From Anaerohalosphaeraceae bacterium (GTDB lineage Bacteria > Planctomycetota > Phycisphaerae > Sedimentisphaerales > Anaerohalosphaeraceae): a DNA stretch of 64,000 bases. Under the pieces are notes generated by a model. That model did not search any database. It saw only the letters and a program-made list of their open reading frames with translations, and was not told the origin of the DNA. The first letter of the stretch is position 1, and every line of letters begins with the position of its first letter. The stretch covers positions 64,001 through 128,000 of the forward strand of contig JBNRMN010000034.1 of NCBI GenBank assembly GCA_050309605.1, given 5' to 3'. Positions 7,678-23,402 of the stretch are shown here, one piece after another. The position numbers were made by a program, and so were the translations under genes.

Positions 7678-8538
7678 ATGGGTCGGCAAGCAAATTTTTC
7701 CGAACTGCGGGATGCCATTCGGCAGGGACAAGCCAAGATCGCACAGGGGCTTAAAACCGGCCAAATGCGTTCGGATCGAGACAAGGCAGGCGCCGGCCGC
7801 GTGCCCCGGCTTGATCCTGCCCACGAGGTGTTGGGCCAAAAGCCGACGTTGACGGGAAAAGCCGCCATTTTTCAGGGGCGAAAGAAACCCCGATTTCGGT
7901 TTTCACTGCCGAAATTGCCGACAATTCGAATTCAGCTGCCGCAGATGTCGCTGCTGCCTATGCGATCTGTCGTGTCCGGTATTGCGGCGGTTCTGGTTGT
8001 GGGGCTTGTGGTTTTTGTGGTGTTTTGGATTGGAAAGGTCCTGGTTGGGTCAGGGACGACGCCCCCGGTCGCTGAGGTCGATCCGGCGGTCCAGCAGCCG
8101 GCCGTTGCGCCGGGGCCTTCTGAGCCGGTTCTGACAGGGCGGCAACCTGCCCCTGTTGAGCGTCAGTCACCGCAAGAAACCGCAGCGGTGCGGACTGAGA
8201 CGGTTCAGCCTACACAAACGCCGGCGGTTTCAACCCCAAGTACCGGCAATAATGTGATCGTGATACAGGGTATTGCGACTGCACGCGAAAATGAACTGCG
8301 CTCTGTGCAGGAATTTTTTGCTCGCCACGGCATTGAGACGGAAATTATCCGAGGCGGCAATAACTACAGTCGTTTGGTGACGAAAGGCCGATTTGAAAAT
8401 CCCAATCGGCCGGGTACCGACGGCTATGAGATGAGAATGAAAATCAGGAATGTCGGGAAACGGTATCCGGCCGAAACCGGTGATACGAAGTTCGGTACCG
8501 AGCCGTTTCAGGATGCGTATGGTCTATTAAGACAGTAA
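7678..8538 (+). CDS. Single-pass membrane protein with a Pro-rich linker and a possible SPOR-like C-terminal domain
   Basis: Basic N-terminus, one hydrophobic TM (about aa 98-124), a P/Q/T-rich stalk and a compact C-terminal domain. SPOR similarity is an inference. Confidence 0.65.
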   Translation: MGRQANFSELRDAIRQGQAKIAQGLKTGQMRSDRDKAGAGRVPRLDPAHEVLGQKPTLTGKAAIFQGRKKPRFRFSLPKLPTIRIQLPQMSLLPMRSVVSGIAAVLVVGLVVFVVFWIGKVLVGSGTTPPVAEVDPAVQQPAVAPGPSEPVLTGRQPAPVERQSPQETAAVRTETVQPTQTPAVSTPSTGNNVIVIQGIATARENELRSVQEFFARHGIETEIIRGGNNYSRLVTKGRFENPNRPGTDGYEMRMKIRNVGKRYPAETGDTKFGTEPFQDAYGLLRQ

Positions 8539-8564
8539 TTTTTTGATATGCAGGAGAGTTGATA

Positions 8565-8726
8565 ATGTCAGTGGATCCTTCGTTAAAAGTGAAAAGTGCG
8601 TTGATGCGCCACCGCAATGTGTTGTCGCGCGAAGAGCGGATCAAAGTTCTCCGGTCGGAAGACCGCTGGAAAGAGGGCGATAAGGTCATGGGACTTCCCA
8701 AGGTCGCCCACCGCAAAATTACGTAA
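8565..8726 (+). CDS. PVC-superphylum small basic protein (53 aa, absent from the ORF track)
   Basis: Manual translation MSVDPSLKVKSALMRHRNVLSREERIKVLRSEDRWKEGDKVMGLPKVAHRKIT; AGGAG RBS; matches the RNVL.R.ERI...W..G....GLPK pattern of the PVC signature protein. Confidence 0.9.
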   Translation: MSVDPSLKVKSALMRHRNVLSREERIKVLRSEDRWKEGDKVMGLPKVAHRKIT

Positions 8727-8848
8727 TCCGGAGTGTGTCGGAGTGCATCGGTGCCGCGCCGTGCGAGACGGTGTTCTCCTGCGGGCGGCATTCTGTTGCG
8801 CCCTGCGGCAGTTGACCCTGAAATTTGCCTTTGTTGTCGAGTGAACGG

Positions 8849-9970
8849 ATGAAGACTTATCTTGCAGAGCGAACGAAGCTGATTGATGCCAGTGGTATCC
8901 GCAAAGTATTTGCCCTGGGCGCGACGCTGAAAGACCCGATTAATTTTTCGATCGGCCAGCCGGAGTTTGATGTGCCTGAGGCGGTCAAAGAGGCGGCCAT
9001 CGGGGCGATTCGCGATGGACAAAACCGCTATTCCCAGACCGCCGGCGAGAATGCCGTGCTTGAGATGCTCCGTCCCCGTGTCAAAGCCGACACGGGCTGG
9101 GATGCGCCGCAGGTGATGTTGACCAACGGCGTCAGCGGGGGGTTGTTGCTGGCGTTTATGGCGCTGATTAATCCCGGCGATGAGGTCATTGTGCCGGATC
9201 CTTATTTCGTGATGTATAAACATCTGGTGCGGATGCTGGGCGGCAAATGTGTGTTTGTGGACTGCTATCCTGATTTTACACTGCCGGTTGAGAAGATCGC
9301 GGCCGCGGTGACGGACAGGACCAAGCTGATTATTCTCAATTCGCCGTCCAATCCGACCGGTCAGGTCTATAGTGAACAGGAGATCAAGGCGGTTGTCAAG
9401 ATTGCCGAGGAACGGGATATTCTCCTGCTCAGCGACGAAATCTACGAGCTGTTCAGCTACGAGCATCCCCATTTATGTATCGGGCGGTATTACGACAAGA
9501 CGCTGCTGCTGAAAGGCTTCGGCAAAAGCTACGGCATGACCGGTTGGCGGATGGGCTATGCGGCCTGTTCGGAGGCGCTCAAGCCGCTGATGGAATCGAT
9601 GCTGATGATTCAGCAATATACGTTTGTCTGTGCGCCGACGCCGTTTCAATTGGCGCTGCCGACGGCGATGGACTACGATATGAGCAGTTATGTGCAGGCG
9701 TATCGAACCAAACGGGATATGCTGTATGACGGGCTGAAAGAGACGTTCACTGTTCACAAGCCCGGCGGGGCGTTTTATATGTTCGCCGAAAAGCCCGAAC
9801 GGTACGCCACGGCGACCGATTTTGTCAAAGATGCCATCGCCCACAATGTGCTGATCATCCCCGGCAACGTCTTCAGTGAGCATGACAGCCATTTCCGGAT
9901 GTGCTATACCACCACCGAAGACAAAATCCGCCAGGGCATTGACATCCTCTGCCGTCTGGCGAAAGGGTAA
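8849..9970 (+). CDS. PLP-dependent class I/II aminotransferase
   Basis: NSPSNPTG, SDEIY and GFGKSYGMTGWRMG (PLP Lys) motifs. Confidence 0.93.
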   Translation: MKTYLAERTKLIDASGIRKVFALGATLKDPINFSIGQPEFDVPEAVKEAAIGAIRDGQNRYSQTAGENAVLEMLRPRVKADTGWDAPQVMLTNGVSGGLLLAFMALINPGDEVIVPDPYFVMYKHLVRMLGGKCVFVDCYPDFTLPVEKIAAAVTDRTKLIILNSPSNPTGQVYSEQEIKAVVKIAEERDILLLSDEIYELFSYEHPHLCIGRYYDKTLLLKGFGKSYGMTGWRMGYAACSEALKPLMESMLMIQQYTFVCAPTPFQLALPTAMDYDMSSYVQAYRTKRDMLYDGLKETFTVHKPGGAFYMFAEKPERYATATDFVKDAIAHNVLIIPGNVFSEHDSHFRMCYTTTEDKIRQGIDILCRLAKG

Positions 9971-10042
9971 AACAGAGGCATTCATTGCCCCTCATCATAG
10001 CCCCCGTGGAATGGAATGGATTGAATGCAACAAGAACATTGT

Positions 10043-10078
10043 CGGCGCGTCTGAAATAAGCGGACGCGCCGTTTTTTT
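10043..10078 (+). terminator. Intrinsic terminator
   Basis: CGGCGCGTCTG-aaataag-CGGACGCGCCG followed by T7. Confidence 0.85.
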
Positions 10079-10115
10079 GTTGTATTATCAGATTTTTGGC
10101 TATACGATTGCTTTT

Positions 10116-11714
10116 ATGGATGGACTGACGGGTTCAATTCGGATGGCTTGGCTGGCGGCTGCGGCGGCAGGAGCGGTGCTGGCGGCGGGGTGGGTTTCAA
10201 GCGGATATGCCGTGTCGGGAAATGGAAGACAGATTGCCGACGCCAACCTGCCGGCGCTGACGTCGTCACCGAAAATCGCCGCCGTGATCGACTGCCATGG
10301 AATGATCGATGAGGGGCTGTATCAGTCCATTGTTCGCCGCAGCGAGGAGGCGATTGCCGCGGGGGCGGACTACCTTTTTTATGATATTCAAACCTACGGC
10401 GGACGGGTTGACAGCGCCGATGAAATCAGCAAGTATCTCATTCACGACGTGAGGCCGATGGCCCATACGGTGGCGTATATCAGCAAAGAGGCCATTTCCG
10501 CCGGCGCTATGGTCAGCGTGTCCTGCAAAGATATTCTAATGCGCAGACATACGACCATCGGCGCCAGTGCCCCGATGTCGATGGGCGGGACACTGGAAGG
10601 GGTCGAGCGTGAAAAGATCGAAAGCTACGTTCGTTCGGTGTTCAGCCGGGCCGCCGAGGCCAACGGCTACCCCGAAGCACTGCTCAAGGCGATGGTCACC
10701 CGACAGCTTGAGGTCTGGCAGGTCAAAAATCGGACCACCGGACAAATGGAATTTTTTGAGACCGAGCACCTGCCGACCGACCCCAATACCTATGATTTGA
10801 AGAACAAGCATCTGATTGTCAAAGATGATGAGATTCTGACGCTGACCGATTCCAAAGCGTATGAGTACGGCATTGCTCGGGCGGTGGTTGAGAATTTGGA
10901 TGAAGCGCTGGCGTTTCTGGCCGAGCGCGACGGGGTGGTTTTTGACCCCAAGGTGCTGTTCTTTAAACCGCTCTGGTCTGAACAAATGGTGCGGTGGATC
11001 AATTCGCCGGCGGTCGTCAGCGTCCTGGTGCTGGGGATTTTGCTGGGGATTTATGTGGAAATGAACACGCCGGGACTGGGGCTGCCGAGTCTGTTGGCGA
11101 TCCTCTGTCTGGTGGTTCTGGTCGGCAGTCGGTATTTGACCGGTATGGCCAACTGGATTGAGATTGCGATTTTGGTGATCGGCATCGTGCTGCTGCTGGT
11201 TGAGTTTTTTATTCTGCCCGGTTTCGGCGTGGCTGGATTTTTGGGTATTACGTGCATTTTGATCGGTTTATTCGGAATGCTCGTACGCACCGCGCCCGGG
11301 GAGATTCCCTGGCCCAAAAATCCGGCGGCCTGGCAGGAGTTTACCGACGGACTGATGGGCATTGCGGTCGGTTTTGCGGCGTTTTTGGTCGCAGTGCTGG
11401 TGTTGTCTCGGTATATGGATCGAATTCCTCTGTTTCGGTCGTTTGTGCTCAGCAGCGCCCTGGACAGGCCCGGCCGCTCAGATGCCGCCGTTGCATCGAA
11501 AGAAAACGCTGCCGTTCCGGCCGCGACTGCGCTTGGGCCGGGACAAATCGGGCGAACGATTTCGGTCTTGCGTCCGGCAGGCAAGGCGCGATTCGACGAC
11601 ACAATCGCCGATGTCGTTACCCGCGGCGAGTTCCTGGGCAAAGATATTTCGGTCACGATACTTGAAATCCGCGGCAACCGAATTGTTGTTGCGGCCGAAC
11701 AGTGGGAAACCTGA
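10116..11714 (+). CDS. Long NfeD: ClpP-class membrane-bound serine protease with TM region and OB-fold
   Basis: TYGG.VD, AISAGA (catalytic Ser), EREKI (Lys), a multi-TM region and a C-terminal LRPAGKARF OB-fold. Start is uncertain (10116 or 10143). Confidence 0.88.
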   Translation: MDGLTGSIRMAWLAAAAAGAVLAAGWVSSGYAVSGNGRQIADANLPALTSSPKIAAVIDCHGMIDEGLYQSIVRRSEEAIAAGADYLFYDIQTYGGRVDSADEISKYLIHDVRPMAHTVAYISKEAISAGAMVSVSCKDILMRRHTTIGASAPMSMGGTLEGVEREKIESYVRSVFSRAAEANGYPEALLKAMVTRQLEVWQVKNRTTGQMEFFETEHLPTDPNTYDLKNKHLIVKDDEILTLTDSKAYEYGIARAVVENLDEALAFLAERDGVVFDPKVLFFKPLWSEQMVRWINSPAVVSVLVLGILLGIYVEMNTPGLGLPSLLAILCLVVLVGSRYLTGMANWIEIAILVIGIVLLLVEFFILPGFGVAGFLGITCILIGLFGMLVRTAPGEIPWPKNPAAWQEFTDGLMGIAVGFAAFLVAVLVLSRYMDRIPLFRSFVLSSALDRPGRSDAAVASKENAAVPAATALGPGQIGRTISVLRPAGKARFDDTIADVVTRGEFLGKDISVTILEIRGNRIVVAAEQWET

Positions 11715-11728
11715 GTCGAGGCGAACGA

Positions 11729-12235
11729 ATGCTCATGGATATTGCCCTGATTGTGTTTGCGTTGTTTTTGTATATCGTCTGTGCCGTACTGACGGTGATG
11801 GAGATCTTTATCCCCAGTTTCGGATTGCTGACGCTGCTGGCAATCGGAACGTTTGTGTGGGGGGCGTCCCTGTTTTTTCAGGTCAGCACGGCGGTCGGCT
11901 GGTTTGGTGTGTTTACGGCGATGGTGGTGATACCCACGTTTTGGGTAATCACCTACAAGCTGTTTCCGAAAACCTCCATCGGACAGGCGATGGTGCTGAA
12001 GAATGTCTCGCGTTCGGCCGGCGATGCCATCGCGGACAAAGATGATCTGGCGCGATTGTCAGGCAAGCGCGGCAGGACGATGGGTCCGCTCAGGCCGGTG
12101 GGGGTTTGCGAGATTGAGGGCAAGCGGGTCATCTGCAGCGCCGAGGTGGGATTTATCCCCAAAGAGACTGAGATTGAAGTCATCCGTGTGGAAGGCAACA
12201 CGATTACCGTGCGAACAAAAGAAACACATATTTAA
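11729..12235 (+). CDS. Short NfeD-family protein (TM plus OB-fold)
   Basis: Hydrophobic N-half with EIFIPSFG; G..G.T..PLRPVG OB-fold. Confidence 0.88.
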   Translation: MLMDIALIVFALFLYIVCAVLTVMEIFIPSFGLLTLLAIGTFVWGASLFFQVSTAVGWFGVFTAMVVIPTFWVITYKLFPKTSIGQAMVLKNVSRSAGDAIADKDDLARLSGKRGRTMGPLRPVGVCEIEGKRVICSAEVGFIPKETEIEVIRVEGNTITVRTKETHI

Positions 12236-12253
12236 TTTCGAAAGGAGTCAACA

Positions 12254-13279
12254 ATGATCGAGGCATTGCTGCTTGCCAATGTTGTCCAGGTCGGCTTTTT
12301 TATCGTGATCGGCCTGATCTTACTGCTCTTTGTGATGCTGGTGATTTTTTACGGGAATTTGTGGCTTCAGGCCCGATTCTCAGGCGCTCCGGTCTCCTTT
12401 GCCGAACTGATCGGGATGTCGCTTCGCAAGGTCAATTCCCGCACGATTGTTGTGAGTCGAATTACCGCGGCCAAGGCGGGTTTGGAGCTGACCACGGCGC
12501 AGCTTGAAAGCCATTATCTTGCCGGCGGACGTGTGCCGAATGTCGTCAGTGCGCTGATTGCCGCCGACCGAGCCAATATCAATCTGTCCTGGCAGGTTGC
12601 CACCGCGATTGATCTTGCCGGACGCGATATTCTCGAAGCGGTGCAAACCAGCGTCAATCCCAAGGTCATCGACTGTCCCGATCCGCGCAAAGGCCGCGAA
12701 ACCGTCGATGCGGTCGCCCAGGACGGCATTCAGCTCAAGGCCAAGGCCCGCGTAACGGTTCGTGCCAATATCGAGCGACTCATCGGCGGAGCAACCGAGG
12801 AGACCATCATCGCGCGTGTCGGTGAGGGAATTGTCACCACCATCGGCAGCGCGGTCAACCACAAAAGCGTGCTGGAAAATCCCGACCGCATTTCACGAGC
12901 GGTGCTCGAAAAAGGCCTGGATGCCGGCACGGCCTTTGAAATCCTGTCCATTGATATCGCGGATGTCGATGTAGGGCAAAATATCGGCGCCCAGCTTCAG
13001 GGAGCACAGGCCGAGGCCGACAAACTTCGCGCCAAGGCCGAGGCGGAAAAACGACGCGCCATGGCCGTCGCGCGCGAACAGGAAATGCGTGCGCTGGTCG
13101 AAGAAAATCGCGCCAAAGTGGTGCTGGCCGAGGCGGAAATCCCGCTGGCCATGGCCGAGGCCTTTCGCAAGGGCAATCTCGGTGTGATGGATTACTATCG
13201 CCTGAAAAATATCAAATCCGATACTGAAATGCGCGAATCCATTGCCAAAGGTGACGCCAAGCCCAAGTCGGAGGACTGA
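12254..13279 (+). CDS. floA: Flotillin-like protein FloA (YqfA)
   Basis: [52 protein letters not shown] and GVMDYY motifs. Confidence 0.96.
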
Positions 13280-14109: not shown

Positions 14110-14892
14110 TTAGTCGTCTGTTTGTCGCCGGGCGGCCAGAATCGCTGCGCCCAGGGCGCCGGTAAACTGTGGCGATTGACAGACCTTGACCGGTTGAGCC
14201 AGGACGGTTTCAAAGGCCTCGCGCATTCCCGAAATCAGCGCTGCGCCGCCGGTAAAATAGACGGGGCTTTGGATCAGGCCGCCGCCCATTGCCGCCAGTC
14301 GGCGTACGATGGCGTTTTGCACGCCGGCGATAATATTTTCGCGCGATTGGCCCTGGGCGAGCAGGCCGACGATCTCGGTCTCGGCAAAAACCACACAAAT
14401 GCTGCTGACGGCTGCGGGGGCATCGCTGCGGCGGGCGTAATCACCCAGCTCATCCAGCGGCACATCCAGCCGGTCGGCGACGACTTCCAGGAATCGCCCG
14501 GTCCCGGCGGCGCAGCGATCGTTCATCACAAAATCCCGCACCTTGCCCCGGCTGTCCAGTCGAATGAGTTTGCTGTCCTGTCCGCCGATGTCGATGACGG
14601 TGGCGACGTCCGGGTGCAGATGGGCGGCGCCGACGGCATGGCAGGTGATTTCGGTGATCGTCGTATCGCTTACATTCACGAGCCTGCGTCCGTAGCCGGT
14701 CGCGGCCACAGCGGCGACGCGACTGCGATTGATCTTTACCTCATTGAGGAGATCATAAAACAGGCGTCGAGCGCGACTCTGCTGATCGGCGCCCTGGTCG
14801 TCCAAGCGGCGGGCCAACACGGTTTGCTGTTGACTGTCCCACAGCACGGCCTTAAGCGTGCGCGAGCCGGCGTCAATGCCTGCGGTAATCAT
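14110..14892 (-). CDS. ATP-dependent [4Fe-4S] activase (HgdC/BcrAD/DCCP-R type ASKHA ATPase)
   Basis: GIDAGSRTLK, ATGYGR, IDIGGQDSK, MNDRCAAGTGRF and SSICVVFAE (two cluster Cys). Confidence 0.94.
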   Translation of the reverse strand: MITAGIDAGSRTLKAVLWDSQQQTVLARRLDDQGADQQSRARRLFYDLLNEVKINRSRVAAVAATGYGRRLVNVSDTTITEITCHAVGAAHLHPDVATVIDIGGQDSKLIRLDSRGKVRDFVMNDRCAAGTGRFLEVVADRLDVPLDELGDYARRSDAPAAVSSICVVFAETEIVGLLAQGQSRENIIAGVQNAIVRRLAAMGGGLIQSPVYFTGGAALISGMREAFETVLAQPVKVCQSPQFTGALGAAILAARRQTDD

Positions 14893-16280
14893 ATTGCTCT
14901 CCTGCTTTTTGCGGTTTCGATTAAGGCTTCCAATCGCGTTGTCAGCGATGATTCATACGGGTCAATCAGCGTGGGAATTTCGATATCCAGAACGGCAAGC
15001 GCGGTGTGGTTTCGAATGCAGTCGGCAATGAGTCTGCCTTCTGTGGCGCAGTGGCTGGCGCCGGGGATGCGGCTGAATACGACCGCCTCGGCGCCGACGG
15101 TATGAATGCTGCGCAGGATACCTCCTGCTCGTCGTTGAGCTGAGCCGGCCATCGGATCGGCCAGGGCGGCTGTGGCCAGGGCGACAAACGGGTCATCGGT
15201 TTCATCGATGGACATTAAAGCGTGCGGGAACATCAGCTCCGTGCCGCAGAGCCGTCCGCCGCACTGTTCCATCAGATTCATTGCATAGACATCTGCCGGC
15301 GGATTGACCCAGAAAACACGTACCGGTTCATTTGAAAGGACGCCGAGGTTGTTTTCGACGCGGCGGTTCACCTCGTTCAGCAGGCCGGTCAGGACGACCT
15401 CGGTCTCGTTCGGATCGGAACAAAAGTGAATCGCCAGCATCTCGGCCAGCATCATCTCCAGCGCCGGCAGGGGACATCGCGGTGCGGAGAACACCCTCAT
15501 TTTCAGGGTTCTCAAAAGCTTCCGGATGCGATTGGTTTGACGGATCGAAGTTCTGAGTTGTTGATGATCAAGCGGCCGGCCCGCAACCTCTGCGAGATAG
15601 TCGGCCACACGCATCAACTCACATCGCACATAATCGATTTGTTGTTCCGATGCCGTCAGGCCGTTGGGTCGAACACGGGCTGTTTGGCCGTTGTGCGGGT
15701 TGCGGTAATGGGGCATTTCCCACCAGAAGATTTCAAATCCGAGGCTTTCCAGCCGTGCCGCGGCGATGGAAAAATCGTCGCAGGTGGCCCCGACACTGCA
15801 CACGAGGGCGTCGGGAATCGGAAAATGCTGTCCGTTGACAAATGCCCCGACCATGGCGCGGACCGGACAAAACGCAGCGTCCAGTCCATATTGGTCGGCC
15901 AGCTCGAACAGGCCGTCTCGCTGCTGTTTGAAGCAGGGAATCCACCAGGCCGCGTCAGGATAAAACGCCGTCAGATTTTCAAAGGCGTATGCAATGACCG
16001 GTATCGTGCCGAGGTCTTTCATTGTGCCGATGATTTTGTTGCCCTGCCGGCGCCACAGCCGCAGGCGGTCTTCTTCGGTCAGTATCAAGTTCCACAAGGC
16101 CAGCGCCGCCGGCGCGTTGTCAAACCGCAGCCGGTCAAGCCGTTTGTCGCCGGCGTTAAAATGACGCTGCAGCGGCCCGCCGTAAAAGCGTTCTTTCAGG
16201 TCGGCCTCGCAAAGCTGTCGGTAGCGCTGCTGCCACTGGTCAAGCGTCAGTTGTGCAGGCGGTACGTTCATCGCTCCCAT
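14889..16280 (-). CDS. 2-hydroxyacyl-CoA dehydratase (HgdAB/BcrBC) family subunit, divergent
   Basis: FCPVRA, GATCDD, GASHC and C-terminal TRLEALIE; overlaps both neighbouring genes. Confidence 0.8.
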   Translation of the reverse strand: MGAMNVPPAQLTLDQWQQRYRQLCEADLKERFYGGPLQRHFNAGDKRLDRLRFDNAPAALALWNLILTEEDRLRLWRRQGNKIIGTMKDLGTIPVIAYAFENLTAFYPDAAWWIPCFKQQRDGLFELADQYGLDAAFCPVRAMVGAFVNGQHFPIPDALVCSVGATCDDFSIAAARLESLGFEIFWWEMPHYRNPHNGQTARVRPNGLTASEQQIDYVRCELMRVADYLAEVAGRPLDHQQLRTSIRQTNRIRKLLRTLKMRVFSAPRCPLPALEMMLAEMLAIHFCSDPNETEVVLTGLLNEVNRRVENNLGVLSNEPVRVFWVNPPADVYAMNLMEQCGGRLCGTELMFPHALMSIDETDDPFVALATAALADPMAGSAQRRAGGILRSIHTVGAEAVVFSRIPGASHCATEGRLIADCIRNHTALAVLDIEIPTLIDPYESSLTTRLEALIETAKSRRAI

Positions 16281-17119
16281 TGCTCCAAAAAAGCGTCCAG
16301 CCGCGACAGCGAAGCTGCTGACAGACGTGCGCAGGAATCGGTTTCAATGCAGATAAGCGGTACGGTAAGTCGCTTGCGCAGATCGAATATCGCCGCCTTC
16401 CAGTAATCACAGAACGGATGCCGGATGACCATCGCGCCAAGAACCCGACGGCGATGGATCGCCTCGCTGAGCCGGTCGAAAAACGGCTCAGCCGGACGCC
16501 GCCAGATCGCAGGCGTTGTCAGATAATGGTCGGCCAGCGCCGCAAGCGGAGGGCTGTTGCCCGCTGTCGGCTCGAAGGGCGTTCGCAGATTTTGCCATGC
16601 CGATTCGGTGCCGTTGAAAACAATCGGCAGACCGCGTGCGGCCGTAAGTTGAGTCAGATCGAAAAAATCGCACTCAAACAACGGCCCGCCGATCACGGCA
16701 AGCCCCTTGTCCTGCGATTCGACGGTTTGGGATGCTGAGTGATTCATTGGATCGGTCAGGAGGGCGGGATTAGTTCGACCGCCGTCCAGCTCGACCAGAC
16801 CGCGTTCCAGCCGTTCAAACTCGTCGCAAAGGATGGTGCGTGCCGTCGGGCTGCCGGTTTTGGGGATGTTCAGCAAAAACGCCGGTTTGTCCGATTGAAG
16901 GGTGTGTCTCTCATACATACGCCTCATCTGGTCGCAGCCGGTGGTAAAAACCGCCGCATCGACCTGTCGGACCGCAGCGGAAAAGGCGTTTGCCCACGCA
17001 CAAAGACCTTCGATCTCGTCGCGTCGTTCCGGCGTTGGTTCGGGACGACAGGGCGTGTGGCCGCAGGCGGTAATCAGCTCAATCGGAACAAACGGACAAC
17101 AATAACCGATTCTTGCCAT
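16268..17119 (-). CDS. Short HgdAB-family subunit
   Basis: IGYCCPFVPIELI, GLC, TTGCDQMRR, FCDYW and SRLDAFLE. Confidence 0.78.
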   Translation of the reverse strand: MARIGYCCPFVPIELITACGHTPCRPEPTPERRDEIEGLCAWANAFSAAVRQVDAAVFTTGCDQMRRMYERHTLQSDKPAFLLNIPKTGSPTARTILCDEFERLERGLVELDGGRTNPALLTDPMNHSASQTVESQDKGLAVIGGPLFECDFFDLTQLTAARGLPIVFNGTESAWQNLRTPFEPTAGNSPPLAALADHYLTTPAIWRRPAEPFFDRLSEAIHRRRVLGAMVIRHPFCDYWKAAIFDLRKRLTVPLICIETDSCARLSAASLSRLDAFLEQWER

Positions 17120-17123
17120 CGTA

Positions 17124-18269
17124 TCAGCCTGTCCTTTCGCGCAGCGTTTCGATGAGCGCTTCGATGCGCACCGACAGCCGGGGCGAATCCGACGGCGCAT
17201 AATCGGTCACGATTTTCAAATAGCCCAGACCTTTGCGCTCGGCCAGTTGACGCACATGATAGGATTCCACATCGTATGTCAGACAACCCTGCCAGACGAG
17301 ATCGATGATGCAGTCGGCGCTGTAGTCCTCGGTCAATTGATCGAGCAGCTCAAGCCGTCGCGTATTCGGCGTCATCACCGAGCAGGGCAGATGGAAATAC
17401 GTCTCGGCAATCGCCTCCAGCGGATCGATGGCCTGTTCCTCTACATCGTCAAGAACGGGTTTGATGCCGGTACAGTTTTCCATACACACCACCCGTGCAC
17501 CGGTGTGTTCGATTAAATCAACAATACGCTCGGCGCCGTGGACAGTCGGCACGCCGGTCAATAACACACGAATGCCGCTGTCGATGGTTGAACCGGCTGT
17601 GTCGGCAGATTCAAGCAATCGCTCATATTCATTCAAATCGTCCTCGATGCCGGAGATGATGCTTTTGAAGTCCAGCAGCCGTCGGCCTGTCCACGGCGGC
17701 CGGGGGCGTTTCATTTGCTCGGCCAGTTGCCGCCGCAATGCGCGTTCGCGATTCATTCGTTTGATGGCGCTGCGCAGCGCGTCGTCCGTGATACGGCACG
17801 ACAGACGGTCTTCGAGTACTGCTTTGAGTTTTCGCACCTCGGCCAGCCAATGCGTTCGGGCATTCGGGTCGTCGGCCTTTTGCGGCAGTTCAAGGATGTG
17901 CATCGGACGTTGCTGTGCCATTAGCTCGAACATTTTCTTCTTGCCGTCGCAGGTGGTCTCAGCCACGATCAAATCGGCCATAGCCAGAAAGGGGTTGCTG
18001 TCGGTGATGTGGTAGCCATAGGTGGATTTAATCAGGGGGCACAGGCCGGCGGGCAGGTCCTGTTCGGCCGGGGCAATTGTTTCCAGCGACCCGCCGCACA
18101 GACACACCGGCACACCGCCGGCGGCAAGAATCAGTTCGCGCGGTGTGTATTCGCACATAATCCCGACGATGGGACGACCCTGGGATTGGGCGGCTGTCGC
18201 AAAGGCGTAACAGTGTTGAATCATTTGATCGAAGCGGCATTGTATCTGCGGGTTTTGGTTCTGTGTCAT
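17124..18269 (-). CDS. Double-cubane cluster protein (DCCP)-like anaerobic reductase, HgdAB family
   Basis: CEYTP.ELI.AAG..PV.LC, LP..LCPLIKS.YG, ETTCDGKKKMFE, ENCTG.K, CSVMTPN, QGC.TY..E and TDY..SD...L..RIEA. The Cys pattern fits the DCCP subfamily. Confidence 0.85.
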   Translation of the reverse strand: MTQNQNPQIQCRFDQMIQHCYAFATAAQSQGRPIVGIMCEYTPRELILAAGGVPVCLCGGSLETIAPAEQDLPAGLCPLIKSTYGYHITDSNPFLAMADLIVAETTCDGKKKMFELMAQQRPMHILELPQKADDPNARTHWLAEVRKLKAVLEDRLSCRITDDALRSAIKRMNRERALRRQLAEQMKRPRPPWTGRRLLDFKSIISGIEDDLNEYERLLESADTAGSTIDSGIRVLLTGVPTVHGAERIVDLIEHTGARVVCMENCTGIKPVLDDVEEQAIDPLEAIAETYFHLPCSVMTPNTRRLELLDQLTEDYSADCIIDLVWQGCLTYDVESYHVRQLAERKGLGYLKIVTDYAPSDSPRLSVRIEALIETLRERTG

Positions 18270-18308
18270 TTGAATGTTCCTCTGACGATCAGGGGCTCAA
18301 ATCGATTC

Positions 18309-19124
18309 TTATGCGGTTTTTACCGCGACGAACAAAGCCTGGATGATTTTGCCCTCGCGGGCCAGTTTTTCCATGGCGGCCATCTCTTTGCCGATGGTGT
18401 TGAGCAGGGTCTGGTCAAAGCCGATAATTTTCAGGGCGTCATACGTAAGCTGCGTACCGACCATTTTTTGATAGAGTTCCACATGGTCGGCAAAGCGGCC
18501 GGTGTCTTCCAGGTGCTTGACGGTGCAGCCGCTTTGTTCAAGCAGAGCGGCGTATCCGCTGCGGCTCTGAAGGTTGGGGAATTTCATAAACGCCAGTGTC
18601 CGCTGCAATTCCTCGGCGGTCATCGGCACATCGCCGAGCACCCAGTCGGTAAAGGCAATCGTACCGCCGGGGCGGACGATGCGGCAGGCCTCGGCAATCA
18701 TCGTGTCTTTGTCTTCCACATAGCACCAGGCGTCCTCGCCCCAGACGAAATCGGCGCTGGCAGCGGCAAGTCCGCTATTGCAGACATCGGCCAGGACAAA
18801 CTGAATCTTATCGTCAGAATGTTCTTCCTGGCAACGTTTTTTACCCAGTTCGACCATCGCTGCTGTGGCATCAACGCCGGTCATGGCGGCGACGCCGCAG
18901 AACCGCACGAGGAAGCGCATCCCTGCGCCGCTGCAGCAGCAGAAATCCACGCCTTTGGTACCGGGCTGAATTGCGGCCTTCTTGGCCAGATCCATCGACG
19001 AGGTCAATCCGCCGATATGAATCTGCTCGCCCATGAGCAATTCCCAGAGTTTGCCTTCGGGGCCGCTATAAACCGTTTGAACCGCTGCCAGCGGACTGTT
19101 TGATTGTTGTGCTGTTTGCTTCAT
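18309..19124 (-). CDS. Class I SAM-dependent methyltransferase (sarcosine/sterol MTase-like fold)
   Basis: GEQIHIGG, motif I variant VDFCCCSGAG, GVDAT, ADV and RIVRPGG.IAFTDW. Confidence 0.9.
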   Translation of the reverse strand: MKQTAQQSNSPLAAVQTVYSGPEGKLWELLMGEQIHIGGLTSSMDLAKKAAIQPGTKGVDFCCCSGAGMRFLVRFCGVAAMTGVDATAAMVELGKKRCQEEHSDDKIQFVLADVCNSGLAAASADFVWGEDAWCYVEDKDTMIAEACRIVRPGGTIAFTDWVLGDVPMTAEELQRTLAFMKFPNLQSRSGYAALLEQSGCTVKHLEDTGRFADHVELYQKMVGTQLTYDALKIIGFDQTLLNTIGKEMAAMEKLAREGKIIQALFVAVKTA

Positions 19125-19140
19125 TGTGTAATCCGTTGAT

Positions 19141-19174
19141 AAAAAAAGCGGGCCGAAACTGTTTTTCGACCCGC
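19141..19174 (-). terminator. Intrinsic terminator between the small Sec ORF and the methyltransferase
   Basis: Minus strand GCGGGUCGAAA-AACAG-UUUCGGCCCGC followed by U7 (11-bp stem). Confidence 0.8.
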
Positions 19175-19203
19175 CGATACTTGCTCTGTTGTGTGAGGAC
19201 TGC

Positions 19204-19464
19204 TTATCGCGTCAACTCCTCAATCGAATACCATCGGTTTTCCTGGTGGACGGTAAACGGTCCGGAATCGATGTCGATTTCGATGCGGAACCGCCTGCGG
19301 AAGTCCTCTGGCACTCGCCACGAGTACCGGCAGGTGCTGCCTCACCCATACTCCATAGAGCCGGTGCGCAGGAAACCGCCGTCTTCAAGCCGAGCTGTTT
19401 CGAAGTTTGTATAGAAAAACGAATAGCCAGGAGATTGCGAATGTTTTTTTTCGATTCCCGTCAT
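19204..19464 (-). CDS. Putative small soluble selenoprotein, 86 aa, U41-x3-C45 (absent from the ORF track)
   Basis: MTGIEKKHSQSPGYSFFYTNFETARLEDGGFLRTGSMEYG-U-GSTCRYSWRVPEDFRRRFRIEIDIDSGPFTVHQENRWYSIEELTR*. TGA at 19344-19342; the frame stays open to TAA 19204; SECIS-like hairpin; divergent from selAB. Confidence 0.78.
19310..19328 (-). promoter_or_regulatory. Bacterial SECIS-like hairpin
   Basis: GGUACUCG-UGG-CGAGUGCC, 13 nt after the UGA; G-containing apical loop. Confidence 0.75.
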
Positions 19465-19636
19465 GACTCCGATTCCAATGTGTCCGTCAATTCTTTAAAG
19501 ACGTTTGCCGTACGACGGTGTTACGAAGATTTTTGTTATTTTTTACCGTTTTAACAGAAAAAAAGCAAGCGGATTCAACGACATTTTTGTATTGTACAAA
19601 AAAAGCACAAAATGTCTTGAATTTAAGTGTCTTGGC

Positions 19637-19664
19637 TTGCTTTTTGGGCGGATCGGCGTACAAT
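19637..19664 (+). promoter_or_regulatory. Candidate sigma70 promoter for selAB
   Basis: TTGCTT-N16-TACAAT, about 46 nt upstream of the selA ATG, in an AT-rich divergent region. Confidence 0.45.
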
Positions 19665-19710
19665 AACATCGCAGGCAGGGACTGATTGATCGGACTACGA
19701 AAGGCGGCTT

Positions 19711-21111
19711 ATGGAAGCACAGATTCAGGCGCAGCTTCGGCAGATTCCTTCGGTGGATGCGGTGTTATCGCAGATTCAGGCACATCCGGCGGCCCGGCGT
19801 GTGGGTGCGGCGATGCGGACGCAACTGGTGCGCGAGGTGATTGAGACAATCCGCCGGCAGGTGCGGGACGGGACATTTTCAGCCGATGCCGATATGGCCG
19901 GGGCGGTGCGGGACCGGATCGAGCGGCGACTGGAAGCGGTGGCGGGGGTGTTTTATCGACGGGTGGTCAATGCGGCCGGGATCATTCTGCACACCGGACT
20001 GGGACGGGCGCCGCTGGCGGGTGAGGTCCTGGAGCAGATCAGCTGGCAGTTGGGCGGGTATTCGCTGTTGCAGGTGGATGTCGAGGCGGGCAAGCGGTCC
20101 TCGCGAGATGGACGGATTGAAGACTTGCTCAAACTGCTGACCGGCGCCGAAGCGGCGACCGTGGTGAATAATAACGCCGCGGCCACGGCGCTGGTGCTGA
20201 ACACCATTGCCGCAGGCAAAGAGGTCATCGTGTCGCGCGGACAGCTCGTCGAGATCGGCGGGGCGTTTCGCCTGCCGGACGTGATGGCCTTTAGCGGGGC
20301 CAGGCTGGTCGAGGTGGGTACCACCAACAAGACGCACCTGCGGGATTATGAGAATGCGATTACCGAAAACACCGCCGCGATTTTGCGGGTGCATCCGAGC
20401 AATTATAAGATTACGGGTTTTACGAGCGAAGTGCCGCTGGAGGAGATGGTCAAGCTGGCCCACGCCAACGGCCTTTTGCTGTTTGATGATGTCGGGGCCG
20501 GGTCGCTGATTGATTTTTCGCGATTTGGATTTGAAAAAGAGCCGACGTTGATGGAATCGGTCGCCGCCGGGGCCGATGTGATTACCTCCAGCGGCGACAA
20601 ACTCATCGGGGCCTCTCAGGCGGGGATCGTCCTTGGCCGTGCCGAAATCATCCAGAAGGTGCGCAAAAATCAATTTGCGCGGATCGTGCGGGTCGATAAG
20701 TTTACGCTGGCGGCGTTGGAGGCGACGCTGAAATTGTTTCTGGATGAGGCGGCGGTGTTGGAAAAGGTGCCCGCCTTGCGGCTGATGCTGCGTTCGGCGG
20801 AGGAGATTCAGCGGCAGGCCGAGCGCATCTGCGAACGGGTGCAGAGGGCCTGCCCTGATGCGTGCGTCTCACTGCTGCCGGGCCAGTCGCAAATCGGAAG
20901 CGGCTCACTGCCCGGACAAAACCTGCCGACGACCCTGGTGGCAATTGCGTCGCCGCATCAATCCGCTGCGGCACTGGCCGACACGCTGCGGGGCGCTGCG
21001 ACGCCGGTCTTTACGCGCATCGGCGATGATCGTGTGCTGATTGACCCGCGCACGCTGCTGGACGGCGATGAGGCGATTTTGATTGAGACGCTGGTTGAAA
21101 TTCTGCATTAA
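19711..21111 (+). CDS. selA: L-seryl-tRNA(Sec) selenium transferase
   Basis: VVNA.G.ILHT.LGRAPL, VNNNAAA, SRGQLVEIGG.FR.PDVM, EVGTTN.TH and SGDKL.G (PLP Lys). Confidence 0.97.
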   Translation: MEAQIQAQLRQIPSVDAVLSQIQAHPAARRVGAAMRTQLVREVIETIRRQVRDGTFSADADMAGAVRDRIERRLEAVAGVFYRRVVNAAGIILHTGLGRAPLAGEVLEQISWQLGGYSLLQVDVEAGKRSSRDGRIEDLLKLLTGAEAATVVNNNAAATALVLNTIAAGKEVIVSRGQLVEIGGAFRLPDVMAFSGARLVEVGTTNKTHLRDYENAITENTAAILRVHPSNYKITGFTSEVPLEEMVKLAHANGLLLFDDVGAGSLIDFSRFGFEKEPTLMESVAAGADVITSSGDKLIGASQAGIVLGRAEIIQKVRKNQFARIVRVDKFTLAALEATLKLFLDEAAVLEKVPALRLMLRSAEEIQRQAERICERVQRACPDACVSLLPGQSQIGSGSLPGQNLPTTLVAIASPHQSAAALADTLRGAATPVFTRIGDDRVLIDPRTLLDGDEAILIETLVEILH

Positions 21112-21148
21112 AACAAACCATGAAGATCGTTTCAAGACATTATGCTCC

Positions 21149-21176
21149 GAACTAAGAACTACGAACTAAAAACTCC
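21149..21176 (+). repeat. Four imperfect heptamer repeats (GAACTAA GAACTAC GAACTAA AAACTCC)
   Basis: Read directly in the selA-selB spacer. Confidence 0.6.
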
Positions 21177-21181
21177 GAATT

Positions 21182-23089
21182 ATGACCCAAATCAACATCA
21201 CTCTCGGCACCGCCGGGCATATTGACCACGGCAAGACGGCGTTGATCCGCTTGCTGACCGGCTGTGAGACCGACCGGCTCAAGGTCGAAAAACAGCGTGG
21301 CATGAGCATTGAGCTGGGCTTTGCCCCGTGTCTGCTGGGGGATAGGGAGGTGGGGATCGTCGATGTCCCCGGACACGAACATTTCATCAAGACGATGGTC
21401 GCCGGCGCCGCGGGCATTGACGGAGTGCTGTTTGTCGTGGCCGCCGATGACGGGATTATGCCTCAGACGCGCGAGCATCTGGAGATTTTGACCCTGCTGG
21501 GCGTGCGGCACGGCCTGACCGTCCTGACCAAGATCGATCGTGTTTCGGAGGAGCGCGTCGAGGCAGCGATCGATGAACTCCGAACGTTTTTGTGCGGCAC
21601 GTTTTTGCATGATGCCCCGATTTGCCCGATGTCCAGCATCACCGGGCAGGGATTCGACGGATTCTATACGGCGTTGAAAGATGTGGTCGCTTCCATATGC
21701 CCCAAAAGCATTGACGGGGTGTTTCGTCTGCCGGTGGAACGGGCGTTTTCGGTCAAGGGCTTCGGCACAGTGCTCAGCGGCATCCCCGCCGCCGGTTCGG
21801 CACAGATCGGCCAGGAAGTCGTCCTGCTGCCGAGCGGACAAACCGGACGCATCAAGGCGATACAGGTTTACGGCAAGCCGTCCGAATACGTGCGAAGCGG
21901 CCAGTGTGCGGCGCTGAATATCCCGCAGATGGATTATCGTACTATCCGACGGGGCGACGTGTTGACGGTAGAGGGGTATTTTTCTCCGACGCAGTGGTTT
22001 TTGTGTGCCGCCGCGGTGCTGCCCGGTCAGTCGCTGCCTGTTAAAAACGGTGCTGAGATGAGGTTCCACACCGGCACGGCGGATGTTGCGGCCAATGTTT
22101 ATCGTGTTGAGCGAGACGAGTACTTTGCCGACGGCGACTTCCTGCTTCAGATTCGTGCGCATACGCCGCTTGTGGCCGCCCCCGGCGACCGGTTTATCCT
22201 GCGGTCGCTGTCGCCGATGCGTACCGTCGGCGGGGGGCGCATCCTTCAGGCGATGTCATCGCGTCTTCGGTATGCTCACGGGCGGGGGCCGGCCTATGCC
22301 AAAGCACTGGCCGAGGCGCAGCGGAATGAAACGGCATTTGTCGCTTTTGCGGTGGAATCGGCGGCGTCCGGCGTCGCACGGCTTGATGATCTCACGTCGT
22401 TTACCAAGCAGAAGCCTGAGCGGGTGCGGCGGCTGCTGGCGGATTTGCTGCAGACACAAACCGTTGTCGCTTTGTCCGGCGATGTGTATATCCACGCCCG
22501 AAAACTGTCGGTGATGTGCCGGCACATCACCGAAACGCTTGAGCAGTTTCACGCCGACCATCCCGAACGGCCGGGCATGGATGCGGAAGCTTTAGCCGAG
22601 CGGCTTGAACTGGGCAAAGGCGTTTTTGATGCCCTGCTGGAAGTTGCCCTGAAACAAGGGACGGTCGTGCGGCGTCTGGATCGGCTGGCACTGCCGTCGC
22701 ACACCGAAACCTGCAATCCGGCTCTGGCAAAACGGCTCCGGCAAATCGAAACAGCGTTCCTGAAAAACCTGTTTGCTCCTCCCGGCCTCAATGAACTGAC
22801 GGCCGAGTCCGGCCTGACCCCATCACAAATCCGGGAGGCCATTACGATTTTGATCGAACAGAAAAAACTATTTTATGTGGACCGAACGATGGTATTCCAC
22901 GCCGAGGCCGTAAAGCAGGCCAAACGCCGTATTGCCGAGCATATTCAGGGCCAAGGGCGGGGCCGTCTGGAAAGCGTCGCATTCAAATACTTGATTGATA
23001 CGACCCGAAAATACGCCATTCCGCTGCTGGATTATATGGACAAAATCGGCTTTACCCGTCGGGTCGGCAATACACGTTACTTGAAATAA
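21182..23089 (+). CDS. selB: Selenocysteine-specific elongation factor
   Basis: GTAGHIDHGKT, RGMSIELGF, DVPGHEHF and TKID; C-terminal winged helix TRKYAIPLLDY (SECIS binding). Confidence 0.97.
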   Translation: MTQINITLGTAGHIDHGKTALIRLLTGCETDRLKVEKQRGMSIELGFAPCLLGDREVGIVDVPGHEHFIKTMVAGAAGIDGVLFVVAADDGIMPQTREHLEILTLLGVRHGLTVLTKIDRVSEERVEAAIDELRTFLCGTFLHDAPICPMSSITGQGFDGFYTALKDVVASICPKSIDGVFRLPVERAFSVKGFGTVLSGIPAAGSAQIGQEVVLLPSGQTGRIKAIQVYGKPSEYVRSGQCAALNIPQMDYRTIRRGDVLTVEGYFSPTQWFLCAAAVLPGQSLPVKNGAEMRFHTGTADVAANVYRVERDEYFADGDFLLQIRAHTPLVAAPGDRFILRSLSPMRTVGGGRILQAMSSRLRYAHGRGPAYAKALAEAQRNETAFVAFAVESAASGVARLDDLTSFTKQKPERVRRLLADLLQTQTVVALSGDVYIHARKLSVMCRHITETLEQFHADHPERPGMDAEALAERLELGKGVFDALLEVALKQGTVVRRLDRLALPSHTETCNPALAKRLRQIETAFLKNLFAPPGLNELTAESGLTPSQIREAITILIEQKKLFYVDRTMVFHAEAVKQAKRRIAEHIQGQGRGRLESVAFKYLIDTTRKYAIPLLDYMDKIGFTRRVGNTRYLK

Positions 23090-23141
23090 GTCTGCTTGAA
23101 TCCATCGGCAAAAAAGGATATATTGGTCAAGAGAGGTGTTT

Positions 23142-23402
23142 ATGCGATACGGTGCAATTTCTGCCAAACTGTTGGCGCTGGGGGTGGGCAGTTTCGTCGT
23201 GCTGGTGGTTCTTCAGCCGGGGTGAGGCAATCCCTTTGGAGTGCTTGGAGCACTCCTGATGATGGTTAGTATGCCGCTGGCGCTGGTCTTCGGCGTTATC
23301 GGCGTGTTTCTGGACAAACCCCGCTGGCCGGCGATCATTGCCGCGCTGATTGCATTGCTCTTGCTGTTGCCGGTCGTGATGAACCTGGCCGGCTGGTGCT
23401 AA
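23142..23402 (+). CDS. Putative small three-TM membrane selenoprotein, 86 aa, U28 and C-terminal C86 (absent from the ORF track)
   Basis: GAGGTG RBS. MRYGAISAKLLALGVGSFVVLVVLQPG-U-GNPFGVLGALLMMVSMPLALVFGVIGVFLDKPRWPAIIAALIALLLLLPVVMNLAGWC*. TGA at 23223-23225; membrane-protein composition continues across the UGA; SECIS-like hairpin; immediately after selB. Confidence 0.8.
23238..23256 (+). promoter_or_regulatory. Bacterial SECIS-like hairpin
   Basis: GGAGUGCU-UGG-AGCACUCC, a perfect 8-bp stem 12 nt after the UGA. Confidence 0.78.

Follow-up and report, generated by a model that had tools for sequence, protein, structure and literature searches.

Two probable selenoprotein families and a conserved double-cubane/HGD-D operon at a selenium gene locus of an Anaerohalosphaeraceae bacterium

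We analysed a 64,000-nucleotide stretch of DNA (the window) from an Anaerohalosphaeraceae bacterium (assembly GCA_050309605.1, contig JBNRMN010000034.1, positions 64,001 to 128,000 of the forward strand). Five tightly packed minus-strand genes (14110-19124), encoding an activase, two HGD-D proteins, a double-cubane cluster protein (DCCP) and an S-adenosylmethionine (SAM) methyltransferase, lie here close to selA and selB, which serve the synthesis and insertion of selenocysteine (Sec). The two sel genes are oriented divergently from the five-gene set and from a small TGA-bearing open reading frame (ORF A), and are flanked by ORF A on one side and on the other by a second such frame, ORF B, immediately 3' of selB. 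Every gene named in an earlier reading made from the sequence alone (the sequence-only reading) was found, and its statement that the last four minus-strand genes abut or overlap holds: there are overlaps of 4 nt and 13 nt, and a 4-nt gap if the short HGD-D gene begins at M28 (17119), likely its real start, giving 283 aa. New here are two very probable selenoprotein families and a conserved operon that is usually followed by selD.

The features of the locus, including candidate Sec insertion sequence (SECIS) hairpins, are, in window positions:

14110..14892, minus strand: activase of the HgdC/DCCP-R type, for ATP-dependent electron transfer, 260 aa (Pfam BcrAD_BadFG, 183.8 bits, 6e-54)
14889..16280, minus strand: long divergent HGD-D protein, 463 aa, probable Fe-S subunit (Pfam HGD-D, 1.1e-31)
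16268..17200, minus strand: short divergent HGD-D protein, 310-aa ORF (Pfam HGD-D, 2e-25)
17124..18269, minus strand: double-cubane cluster protein DCCP, 381 aa (NF040772)
18309..19124, minus strand: Cys-rich class I SAM methyltransferase, 271 aa (Pfam Methyltransf_11/25)
19147..19175, minus strand: intrinsic-terminator-like hairpin, 12 bp with a T7 tail, between ORF A and the methyltransferase gene
19204..19464, minus strand: ORF A ('SecA-short'), very probable small selenoprotein, 86 aa plus stop (coding 19207-19464, stop 19204-19206)
19342..19344, minus strand: probable Sec-UGA of ORF A, codon 41 (aligned TGA in homologues)
19310..19328, minus strand: probable SECIS hairpin of ORF A, GGUACUCG-UGG-CGAGUGCC (covariation)
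19591..19618, minus strand: sigma-70-like promoter match 5' of ORF A, weak evidence (9/12 positions; 1 site against 0.6 expected)
19711..21111, plus strand: selA, selenocysteine synthase (Pfam SelA, 1.2e-140; TIGR00474 above cut-off)
21182..23089, plus strand: selB, Sec-specific elongation factor (Pfam GTP_EFTU, SelB-wing_2, SelB-wing_3 and Beta-barrel_SelB)
23142..23402, plus strand: ORF B ('SecB'), very probable small membrane selenoprotein, 86 aa plus stop (TGA codon 28 at 23223-23225)
23238..23256, plus strand: probable SECIS hairpin of ORF B, GGAGUGCU-UGG-AGCACUCC (covariation)

Two small ORFs and their families

We identified relatives of ORF A with TGA in three samples. A six-frame search of 41 related genomes gave 29 matches in 12 genomes, all 29 of which contain TGA. 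A second sample comprised 80 loci of other species, the best 80 of 369 relatives of the 463-aa HGD-D protein that were found in a one-genome-per-species search with an alignment of that protein, many of them cut by contig ends; here tblastn placed TGA at the aligned codon in 60 of 61 matches, the remaining one being Arg and none Cys. Finally, a profile search for the domain in 151 genomes of the class was positive in 32, and 71 of the 74 matches have one TGA. The motif of the family is [F/L]-x-Y-G-U-G-[G/F/S]-[T/V/A/I]-C-R-Y-S-W-R-V-P.

A hairpin with an 8-bp stem and a UGG loop begins 13 nt after the UGA of ORF A. We evaluated it on 52 of 66 distinct stretches, excluding by hand three with a 3-nt insertion and eleven near-duplicates (14 in all): 95.7% of cells were paired, both sides had changed in five of the eight pairs, none of 500 shuffles equalled the observed values, and controls with slid partners were 24-57% paired. 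The stem doubles as coding sequence for the conserved peptide motif RYSWRVP, so that RNA element and peptide motif constrain each other. The variants SLSWREP, RRSWRAP and RYLWQVP, seen among loci L046-L125, are compensatory changes in the stem.

For ORF B, all seven strong matches (E <= 6e-10) have one TGA each, and three weak ones without TGA (E 6.5e-4 to 1.9e-3) are probably spurious. Its hairpin likewise has an 8-bp stem and a UGG loop; across nine sequences 91.7% of cells were paired, with both sides changed in five of eight pairs and none of 500 shuffles equalling the observed paired share or covariation score. Over both ORFs, slid-partner controls gave 24-61% paired cells, against 92-96% for the proposed structures. 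The distance from UGA to apical loop, counted on the alignments, is 21 nt in ORF A and 20 nt in ORF B. The bacterial SECIS (bSECIS) rule, as worded in the passages of a 2026 selenoproteome review that deal with it (PMC13188914), places the apical loop at a set distance past the UGA and has G or U as its first two nucleotides, and the UGG loops and 20-21 nt spacing of both predicted hairpins fit it. Sec decoding is thus very probable for both families. A crude genome scan for TGA followed by a perfect hairpin returned 161 candidates, among them the four known sites; the remainder resembled out-of-frame noise to the eye, and the list is no inventory of selenoproteins.

The sequence-only reading had made its case depend on conservation of the small ORFs across the UGA, and this conservation is seen in both families (60/61 and 71/74 matches for ORF A, 7/7 strong matches for ORF B). 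Homologues with Cys for Sec, which it had also thought worth seeking, exist in the ORF A family (5 of 17 database proteins), but in the ORF B family only a paralogue with Leu was seen.

ORF A is a truncated copy, comprising the second half, of a widespread immunoglobulin (Ig)-like U-x3-C domain (loop U-G-G-T-C), hereafter the Sec domain, which in most relatives forms the C-terminal part of proteins that are anchored in the membrane or exported. Full-length relatives mostly have 180-220 aa, or 450-1000 aa, with the Sec motif about 40 residues before the C-terminus, and all 21 aligned homologues have an N-terminal hydrophobic segment. An AlphaFold model of a 216-aa member (predicted local distance difference test, pLDDT, 93; predicted template modelling score, pTM, 0.83) has a transmembrane helix at residues 3-24 followed by two Ig-like beta-sandwiches, with Sec in a loop of the second. 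Foldseek, run on this model, returned only generic tandem Ig/MG-domain matches (template modelling scores 0.2-0.33) that carry no functional information. Because of the hydrophobic N-termini and the modelled helix and sandwiches, the Sec domain most likely faces outwards, away from the cytoplasmic enzymes, and the family pattern suggests an outward-facing Sec-x3-Cys module for redox chemistry or for chalcogen or metal binding. A soluble selenoprotein had been proposed in the sequence-only reading; the ORF A copy does lack an anchor, but this reflects no more than its truncation, as the family is usually membrane-anchored.

Two further Sec-domain genes occur in the same genome on contig C2. One encodes a 962-aa exported LamG protein with a C-terminal anchor (G000:C2:24807-27695; L013:6808-9696), and the other a 384-aa protein in which a polytopic membrane region follows the Sec domain (G000:C2:30321-31472; L013:12322-13473).

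Searches of Pfam-A and NCBIfam release 20 gave no family match for ORF A or six full-length Sec-domain relatives; the Sec domain has a weak, sub-threshold match to MG2 (17.7-20.6 bits, cut-off 32.8). Only 120 of 1.84 billion representative proteins matched the Sec-domain profile at E <= 0.001, and in the 17 of these that were inspected the Sec position holds Cys (five), Gly (five), Trp (two), Arg (one) or other residues (four). Two of the Cys forms (P0021, P0024, P0025, P0029 and P0033) carry a C-terminal Redoxin/AhpC-TSA domain. The Gly and Trp entries (P0007, P0009, P0013, P0018, P0020, P0023 and P0034) look like gene calls in which TGA was translated by genetic code 25 or 4. Public protein sets hold both selenoprotein families as fragments, some with W or G at the Sec codon, which is a warning for annotation.

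The window copy of ORF A lacks both the anchor and the first half of the beta-sandwich. Its similarity to a sister species (G002) starts exactly at the ATG of M37 (19354-19356), four codons before the UGA, and extends to a conserved terminator, with about 90% nucleotide identity against 74-81% in six neighbouring genes and ORF B; by a count on the alignment, eight of the eleven changed codons are non-synonymous. The terminator-like hairpin at 19147-19175, conserved in G002, lies between ORF A and the methyltransferase gene, and therefore ORF A is probably its own transcription unit in this organism. The leftward unit of the sequence-only reading, which had included ORF A, is probably split at this point. 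Between the Sec-domain gene and the methyltransferase gene, other loci encode a signal-peptide protein of about 300 aa (L024 ~8200-9150, in G002, and L093:6211-7155, where it is DUF3034) that is missing in the window. L093 belongs to a record, 'Anaerohalosphaeraceae bacterium U12dextr', titled as an isolate rather than a metagenome-assembled genome.

On contigs of three other studies, the listed differences include nine in ORF A (19211-19338), none of those listed falling in the N-terminal 40 codons, and by codon arithmetic several of the nine restore the consensus Gly at positions 43 and 57. The same contigs have a 7-nt insertion (GAACTAA) in the selA-selB spacer at 21148, and differences crowded at 20574-20694 within selA, suggesting recombination among strains. 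The predicted fold of the 225-nt ORF A RNA has z = -4.1, with a frequency of 0.006 in the ensemble for the minimum-free-energy structure, and pairs the 3' SECIS arm with a downstream near-copy of the 5' arm, in competition with the SECIS stem. The window ORF A may be a decaying truncated copy, a recombination tract or a Sec-dependent leader. Run X16, labelled transcriptomic, was set aside as evidence of expression, being flagged as probably DNA; its contigs cover ORF B in part and do not cover ORF A.

ORF B is predicted to form three helices; U28 lies in the loop after the first, within the motif (Q/R/K)-P-G-U-G-N-P, and there is a Cys among the last two residues in seven of the eight family sequences that include the C-terminus, the ninth being cut by a contig end. 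Its structure model is of low confidence (pLDDT 65) and was taken for helix positions only; by the positive-inside rule, Sec and the C-terminal Cys would face outwards. Pfam-A and NCBIfam release 20 gave chance-level matches only. A tandem paralogue at L113:1201-1470 on the minus strand has Leu for Sec (RPGLGNP) and adjoins a Sec-containing copy.

The five-gene operon and its selenium neighbours

HgdC-type activases hydrolyse ATP and thereby pass low-potential electrons on to Fe-S proteins of the HGD-D type. The activase of the window (TIGR00241, 251.4 bits, cut-off 125.4) is of the HgdC/BcrAD type, the reductase partner for DCCP, and the DCCP scores 406.5 bits on NF040772, above the cut-off of 350, and matches the solved DCCP structures 6ENO/7YYL at E 1e-54. 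Its residues C39, C58, C77, C107, C262 or C266, C296 and C329 are kept in 59-61 of 61 homologues (C262 in 36/61). The short HGD-D protein has three Cys kept in 62-64 of 64 homologues, presumably as expected for one [4Fe-4S] cluster; the long one has six, C116, C138, C167, C287, C345 and C411, conserved in 74-77 of 77 homologues, and a seventh, C161, conserved in 75 of the 77. Neither scores as a HadB, HadC, BcrC or BzdN equivalog (best 11.8-15.9 bits, cut-offs 421-750).

The methyltransferase has an unusual run of three Cys, C62-C63-C64, in its SAM-binding motif; these residues, together with C134 and C200, are conserved in 57-58 of 58 homologues. Assignment to the DVU_1556 family (NF045667), its best NCBIfam match, was rejected (58.5 bits, cut-off 155), as was ArsM (NF008823; 39.3 bits, cut-off 263). 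A protein-atlas search gave generic methyltransferase clusters only, and a PDB sequence search generic class I enzymes only, such as phosphoethanolamine N-methyltransferases. NCBIfam has no family above cut-off for the long HGD-D protein, and both divergent proteins fall only in the broad Pfam HGD-D family. We thus found no curated family for the methyltransferase, either divergent HGD-D protein or either small selenoprotein, and the sequence-only reading, which an existing family annotation could have overturned, stands in this respect.

The operon of methyltransferase, DCCP, two divergent HGD-D proteins and activase is conserved, and close relatives keep the arrangement of the window. Most of the best 80 loci come from Planctomycetota, and some bear the labels Verrucomicrobiota, Omnitrophota and Sumerlaeota. 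Conservation of the synteny was a check named in the sequence-only reading: by tblastn, 78 of these loci contain the short HGD-D gene, 76 the activase gene, 70 the DCCP gene and 61 the methyltransferase gene. As to selenium genes, 57 loci have selD, 38 the Sec domain, 36 selA and 32 selB. In 39 of the 53 loci with enough flank, selD comes no more than 2.5 kb after the activase gene and on its strand, and selA lies upstream in 24 of 34. Where 6 kb was available on both sides, selD or selA was present in 18 of 20 loci and both were missing in two. The copy of selD beside the operon was the sole one of its genome in all five genomes checked. This order, in which selD comes after the operon while selA and selB point the other way, is found again at protein identities of 50-60% in records that carry labels such as Phycisphaerae, Pirellulales, Planctomycetaceae and Verrucomicrobiota; the five-gene set accompanies selA, selB and selD across genera, families and phyla.

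In the class sample (151 genomes), the long HGD-D gene was found in 16 genomes and selA in 53. Fifteen of those 16 have selA, and the one without it is 90% complete. The Sec domain occurs in 14 of the 16 operon genomes, and in 16 genomes without the operon, where it still lies next to selA; 16 of 32 Sec-domain genomes have no long HGD-D match at E <= 1e-30, and one of these (G057) is 99% complete. Since the domain is wider than the operon and stays beside selA in operon-free genomes, the Sec domain goes with the Sec machinery; the operon is an addition confined to selenium users.

In this genome selA, selB, selD and the gene for tRNA-Sec are all present, the last two on a separate contig (G000:C64), where selD (G000:C64:22084-23775; L126:8084-9775) is followed by tRNA-Sec. 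SelD is fused to a C-terminal CMD/AhpD-like domain in six of six loci (the C64 copy, L093, L120, L086, L072 and L059). A NapH-like Fer4_5 membrane Fe-S protein is encoded near selD in related islands (L093:14174-15052, L086:14494-15396 and L120:19852-20706), and none was seen in the examined part of the window. A search of the whole genome, 99.7% complete, found no formate dehydrogenase alpha (TIGR01591), and the two selenoprotein families may therefore be the main reason why this organism keeps its Sec machinery.

At its right border the region meets a GH78 rhamnosidase gene, and at its left an ORF without family match and then flotillin/NfeD genes. The latter, two NfeD-like genes and a FloA flotillin gene (9876-13279), form a separate left-hand unit that is apparently unrelated to the island.

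A possible selenium role and its rivals

We propose that the whole region is the core of a selenium-utilisation island in an anaerobic Phycisphaerae bacterium, an explanation to which, taken with all its parts, we give an even chance. In it, the activase would use ATP to drive low-potential electrons into the Fe-S proteins, DCCP and the HGD-D proteins, and these would reduce refractory selenium species to the selenide required by SelD; elemental or protein-bound Se(0), or an organoselenium compound, is the candidate substrate. Reduction of Se(0) to selenide needs very low-potential electrons. The Cys-rich methyltransferase would act on the same selenium pool, through overflow methylation or a methylated intermediate, and the Sec machinery would serve the two outward-facing selenoproteins as redox or chalcogen-binding clients, which the cytoplasmic enzymes would not take as substrates. 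To judge from sequence and gene order, the reductase is likely to handle selenium; whether its substrate is the species that feeds SelD, with the methyltransferase working on the same pool, we regard as evenly balanced.

We consider it rather unlikely that the island goes further and forms a complete, undescribed route of selenium acquisition, with surface Sec/Cys proteins, a selenide-making reductase and a methyltransferase that controls the pool. The outward Ig-like U-x3-C and small membrane proteins would then capture or reduce environmental selenium at the cell surface, and an ATP-driven double-cubane/HgdAB-like complex would be the enzyme, long sought, that makes SelD's selenide from elemental or organic selenium. 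If true, this would be the first physiological substrate for double-cubane proteins.

Several observations weigh against a selenide-producing reductase and its selenoprotein clients. It is gene neighbourhood alone that points to the substrate of the reductase. The methyltransferase role is the weakest link, as a SAM methyltransferase is unnecessary for making selenide and this one falls below the ArsM and DVU_1556 cut-offs. The selD of this very genome is off the locus, on another contig, and 38 of the 53 selA-positive genomes of the class have no long HGD-D match, so Sec synthesis does not generally require the operon. The co-occurrence counts overstate the support, because they come from related and thus non-independent genomes. 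Finally, the window ORF A has Ser43 and Arg57 where at least 90% of the family has Gly, and it differs from relatives mainly by non-synonymous changes; the gene may be in decay or serve another purpose.

Alternative explanations for the small ORFs begin with the view that the TGAs are ordinary stops or pseudogene lesions and that the locus encodes no selenoproteins. ORF A is shorter than its family and has two non-consensus residues, as such a lesion would, but the counts of conserved TGA and the covarying hairpins already contradict this scarcely credible alternative: the codon is TGA, never TAA or TAG, at one aligned position in dozens of genomes, both of its flanks are conserved, and the genes adjoin selA and selB. 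It is improbable, and would be compatible with the selenium-island explanation, that ORF A in this genus is mainly a selenium-sensing leader or structured RNA, in which Sec-UGA, SECIS, alternative pairing and terminator would couple the supply of Sec-tRNA to expression of downstream genes. The tract shared with G002, running from the ATG near the UGA to the terminator at a higher nucleotide identity than the neighbours, its eight non-synonymous codons out of eleven, and the RNA fold with the SECIS arm in alternative pairing all fit a leader, yet they come from no more than two species and some strain contigs. They also fit a gene in decay or a tract that recombined recently. The strain contigs have G002-like states, and the minimum-free-energy fold, computed from sequence alone, makes up only a small part of its ensemble. 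The mechanism offered by the sequence-only reading, a small selenoprotein acting as methyl or redox carrier, or as a tailored peptide substrate, whose Sec is methylated and then reductively processed, is very unlikely. The Sec-domain gene does lie directly 5' of the methyltransferase gene on the same strand in many loci, and the copy in this genus has no membrane anchor; against this, family members are anchored or exported, half of the Sec-domain genomes (16/32) lack a long HGD-D match, a conserved terminator follows ORF A, and the sister species has an extra gene between terminator and methyltransferase. Topology, phyletic pattern and terminator together argue against that mechanism, and the sequence-only reading holds up in outline but not in the particular mechanism it gives.

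Other alternatives concern the reductase. It could act on a non-selenium substrate and itself depend on selenium, for instance through a selenium-bridged analogue of the [8Fe-9S] cluster made with selenophosphate from SelD; a selenium need of this kind would account for its travelling with selD. This is raised as a formal possibility in a passage of Haft and Gwadz (bioRxiv 10.1101/2022.07.06.499078), and would agree with the presence of selD within the operon in most loci and with the confinement of the operon to Sec/SelD-positive genomes of the sample. We nevertheless hold it to be unlikely, as there is no sequence hint of a selenium ligand, the matched solved DCCP structures are named merely as dehydratase family proteins, and the methyltransferase would be left unexplained. 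It is also quite unlikely that the operon encodes a low-potential reductase or dehydratase that has nothing to do with selenium and works on a small molecule or coenzyme A (CoA) ester, its only link to the selenium genes being shared regulation or hitch-hiking on an island in anaerobes. According to the DCCP passages of the same preprint, physiological substrates of these proteins are unknown; moreover, two of the 20 fully flanked loci have neither selD nor selA, and selD has moved away in this genome. The recurrence of the same operon-selD order across several lineages at 50-60% protein identity would, however, be hard to retain without selection.

Relation to known systems

Published work already links double-cubane proteins to selenium. 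In their preprint (bioRxiv 10.1101/2022.07.06.499078), Haft and Gwadz built NF040772 and found 955 of 970 high-scoring double-cubane proteins in SelD-containing assemblies; in the passages of the preprint on these proteins the correlation is left unexplained and DCCP substrates are described as generally not known. A table in Lin et al. 2015 (PMC5322559) has dehydratase-subunit and activase genes in a Slackia selenium island, and a passage of PMC10418091 calls DCCP 'provisionally linked' to selenium. The claim of the sequence-only reading that the combination is not a described pathway therefore survives for the five-gene operon and the two selenoprotein families, of which we found no description in the literature searched (the searched passages of PMC13188914 contain no matching family), but not for the tie between DCCP and selenium.

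The operon bears on two questions, the cellular role of double-cubane proteins and the supply of selenide to SelD in anaerobes. Conserved beside a sole selD, it offers concrete genes with which the double-cubane role becomes testable. The two selenoprotein families extend the prokaryotic selenoproteome.

The closest likeness is to DCCP/DCCP-R of Carboxydothermus hydrogenoformans (6ENO, 7YYL), with which the window DCCP shares the NF040772 score, seven conserved Cys and an HgdC-type ATPase, here three genes away. Its Cys spacing is near-canonical, but departs from the exact published motif (CX19CX18-19CX29CX166-170CX32-34CX32C) in the first spacer, X18 for X19, and the long spacer, about X154-158 for X166-170. 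The protein always occurs with two further HGD-D proteins, both very divergent, and with a Cys-rich methyltransferase; selD is usually present as well. With the HgdAB/HadBC dehydratases and the class I benzoyl-CoA reductases BcrBC/BzdNO, the operon shares the Pfam HGD-D fold family and activation by an HgdC-type ATPase, whereas its equivalog scores are far below the cut-offs and it contains no CoA-ligase or CoA-transferase genes.

The selenocysteine-assisted organometallic (SAO) locus and the DCCP-SelD correlation of Haft and Gwadz likewise tie double-cubane proteins to selenium traits, with overlooked, database-truncated selenoproteins nearby. None of the eight window proteins scanned matches a Sao family, however, and the window has an Ig-like U-x3-C protein and a three-helix membrane protein where SAO has CU-motif MerB-like and ABC-transporter proteins. 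The lineages also differ, being Planctomycetota here and Firmicutes, spirochetes and Deltaproteobacteria for SAO.

The N-terminal domain of DsbD (nDsbD) is a periplasmic Ig-fold redox domain that works with thioredoxin-like partners. By analogy, an outward Ig-like domain with a redox-active pair in a loop would be common to nDsbD and the Sec domain, and some Sec-domain relatives are similarly fused to TlpA/Redoxin or polytopic membrane domains. In contrast, neither sequence nor Foldseek searches matched DsbD, and the pair here is Sec-x3-Cys.

Finally, both small ORFs resemble genes with a SECIS inside the ORF, of which fdhF is the paradigm, in that the loop lies 20-21 nt past the UGA, as in the bSECIS passages of PMC13188914, and in that selA, selB, selC and selD are shared. 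They differ from the fdhF type in the 8-bp stem with a UGG triloop common to both window families, and in a hairpin that in ORF A encodes RYSWRVP.

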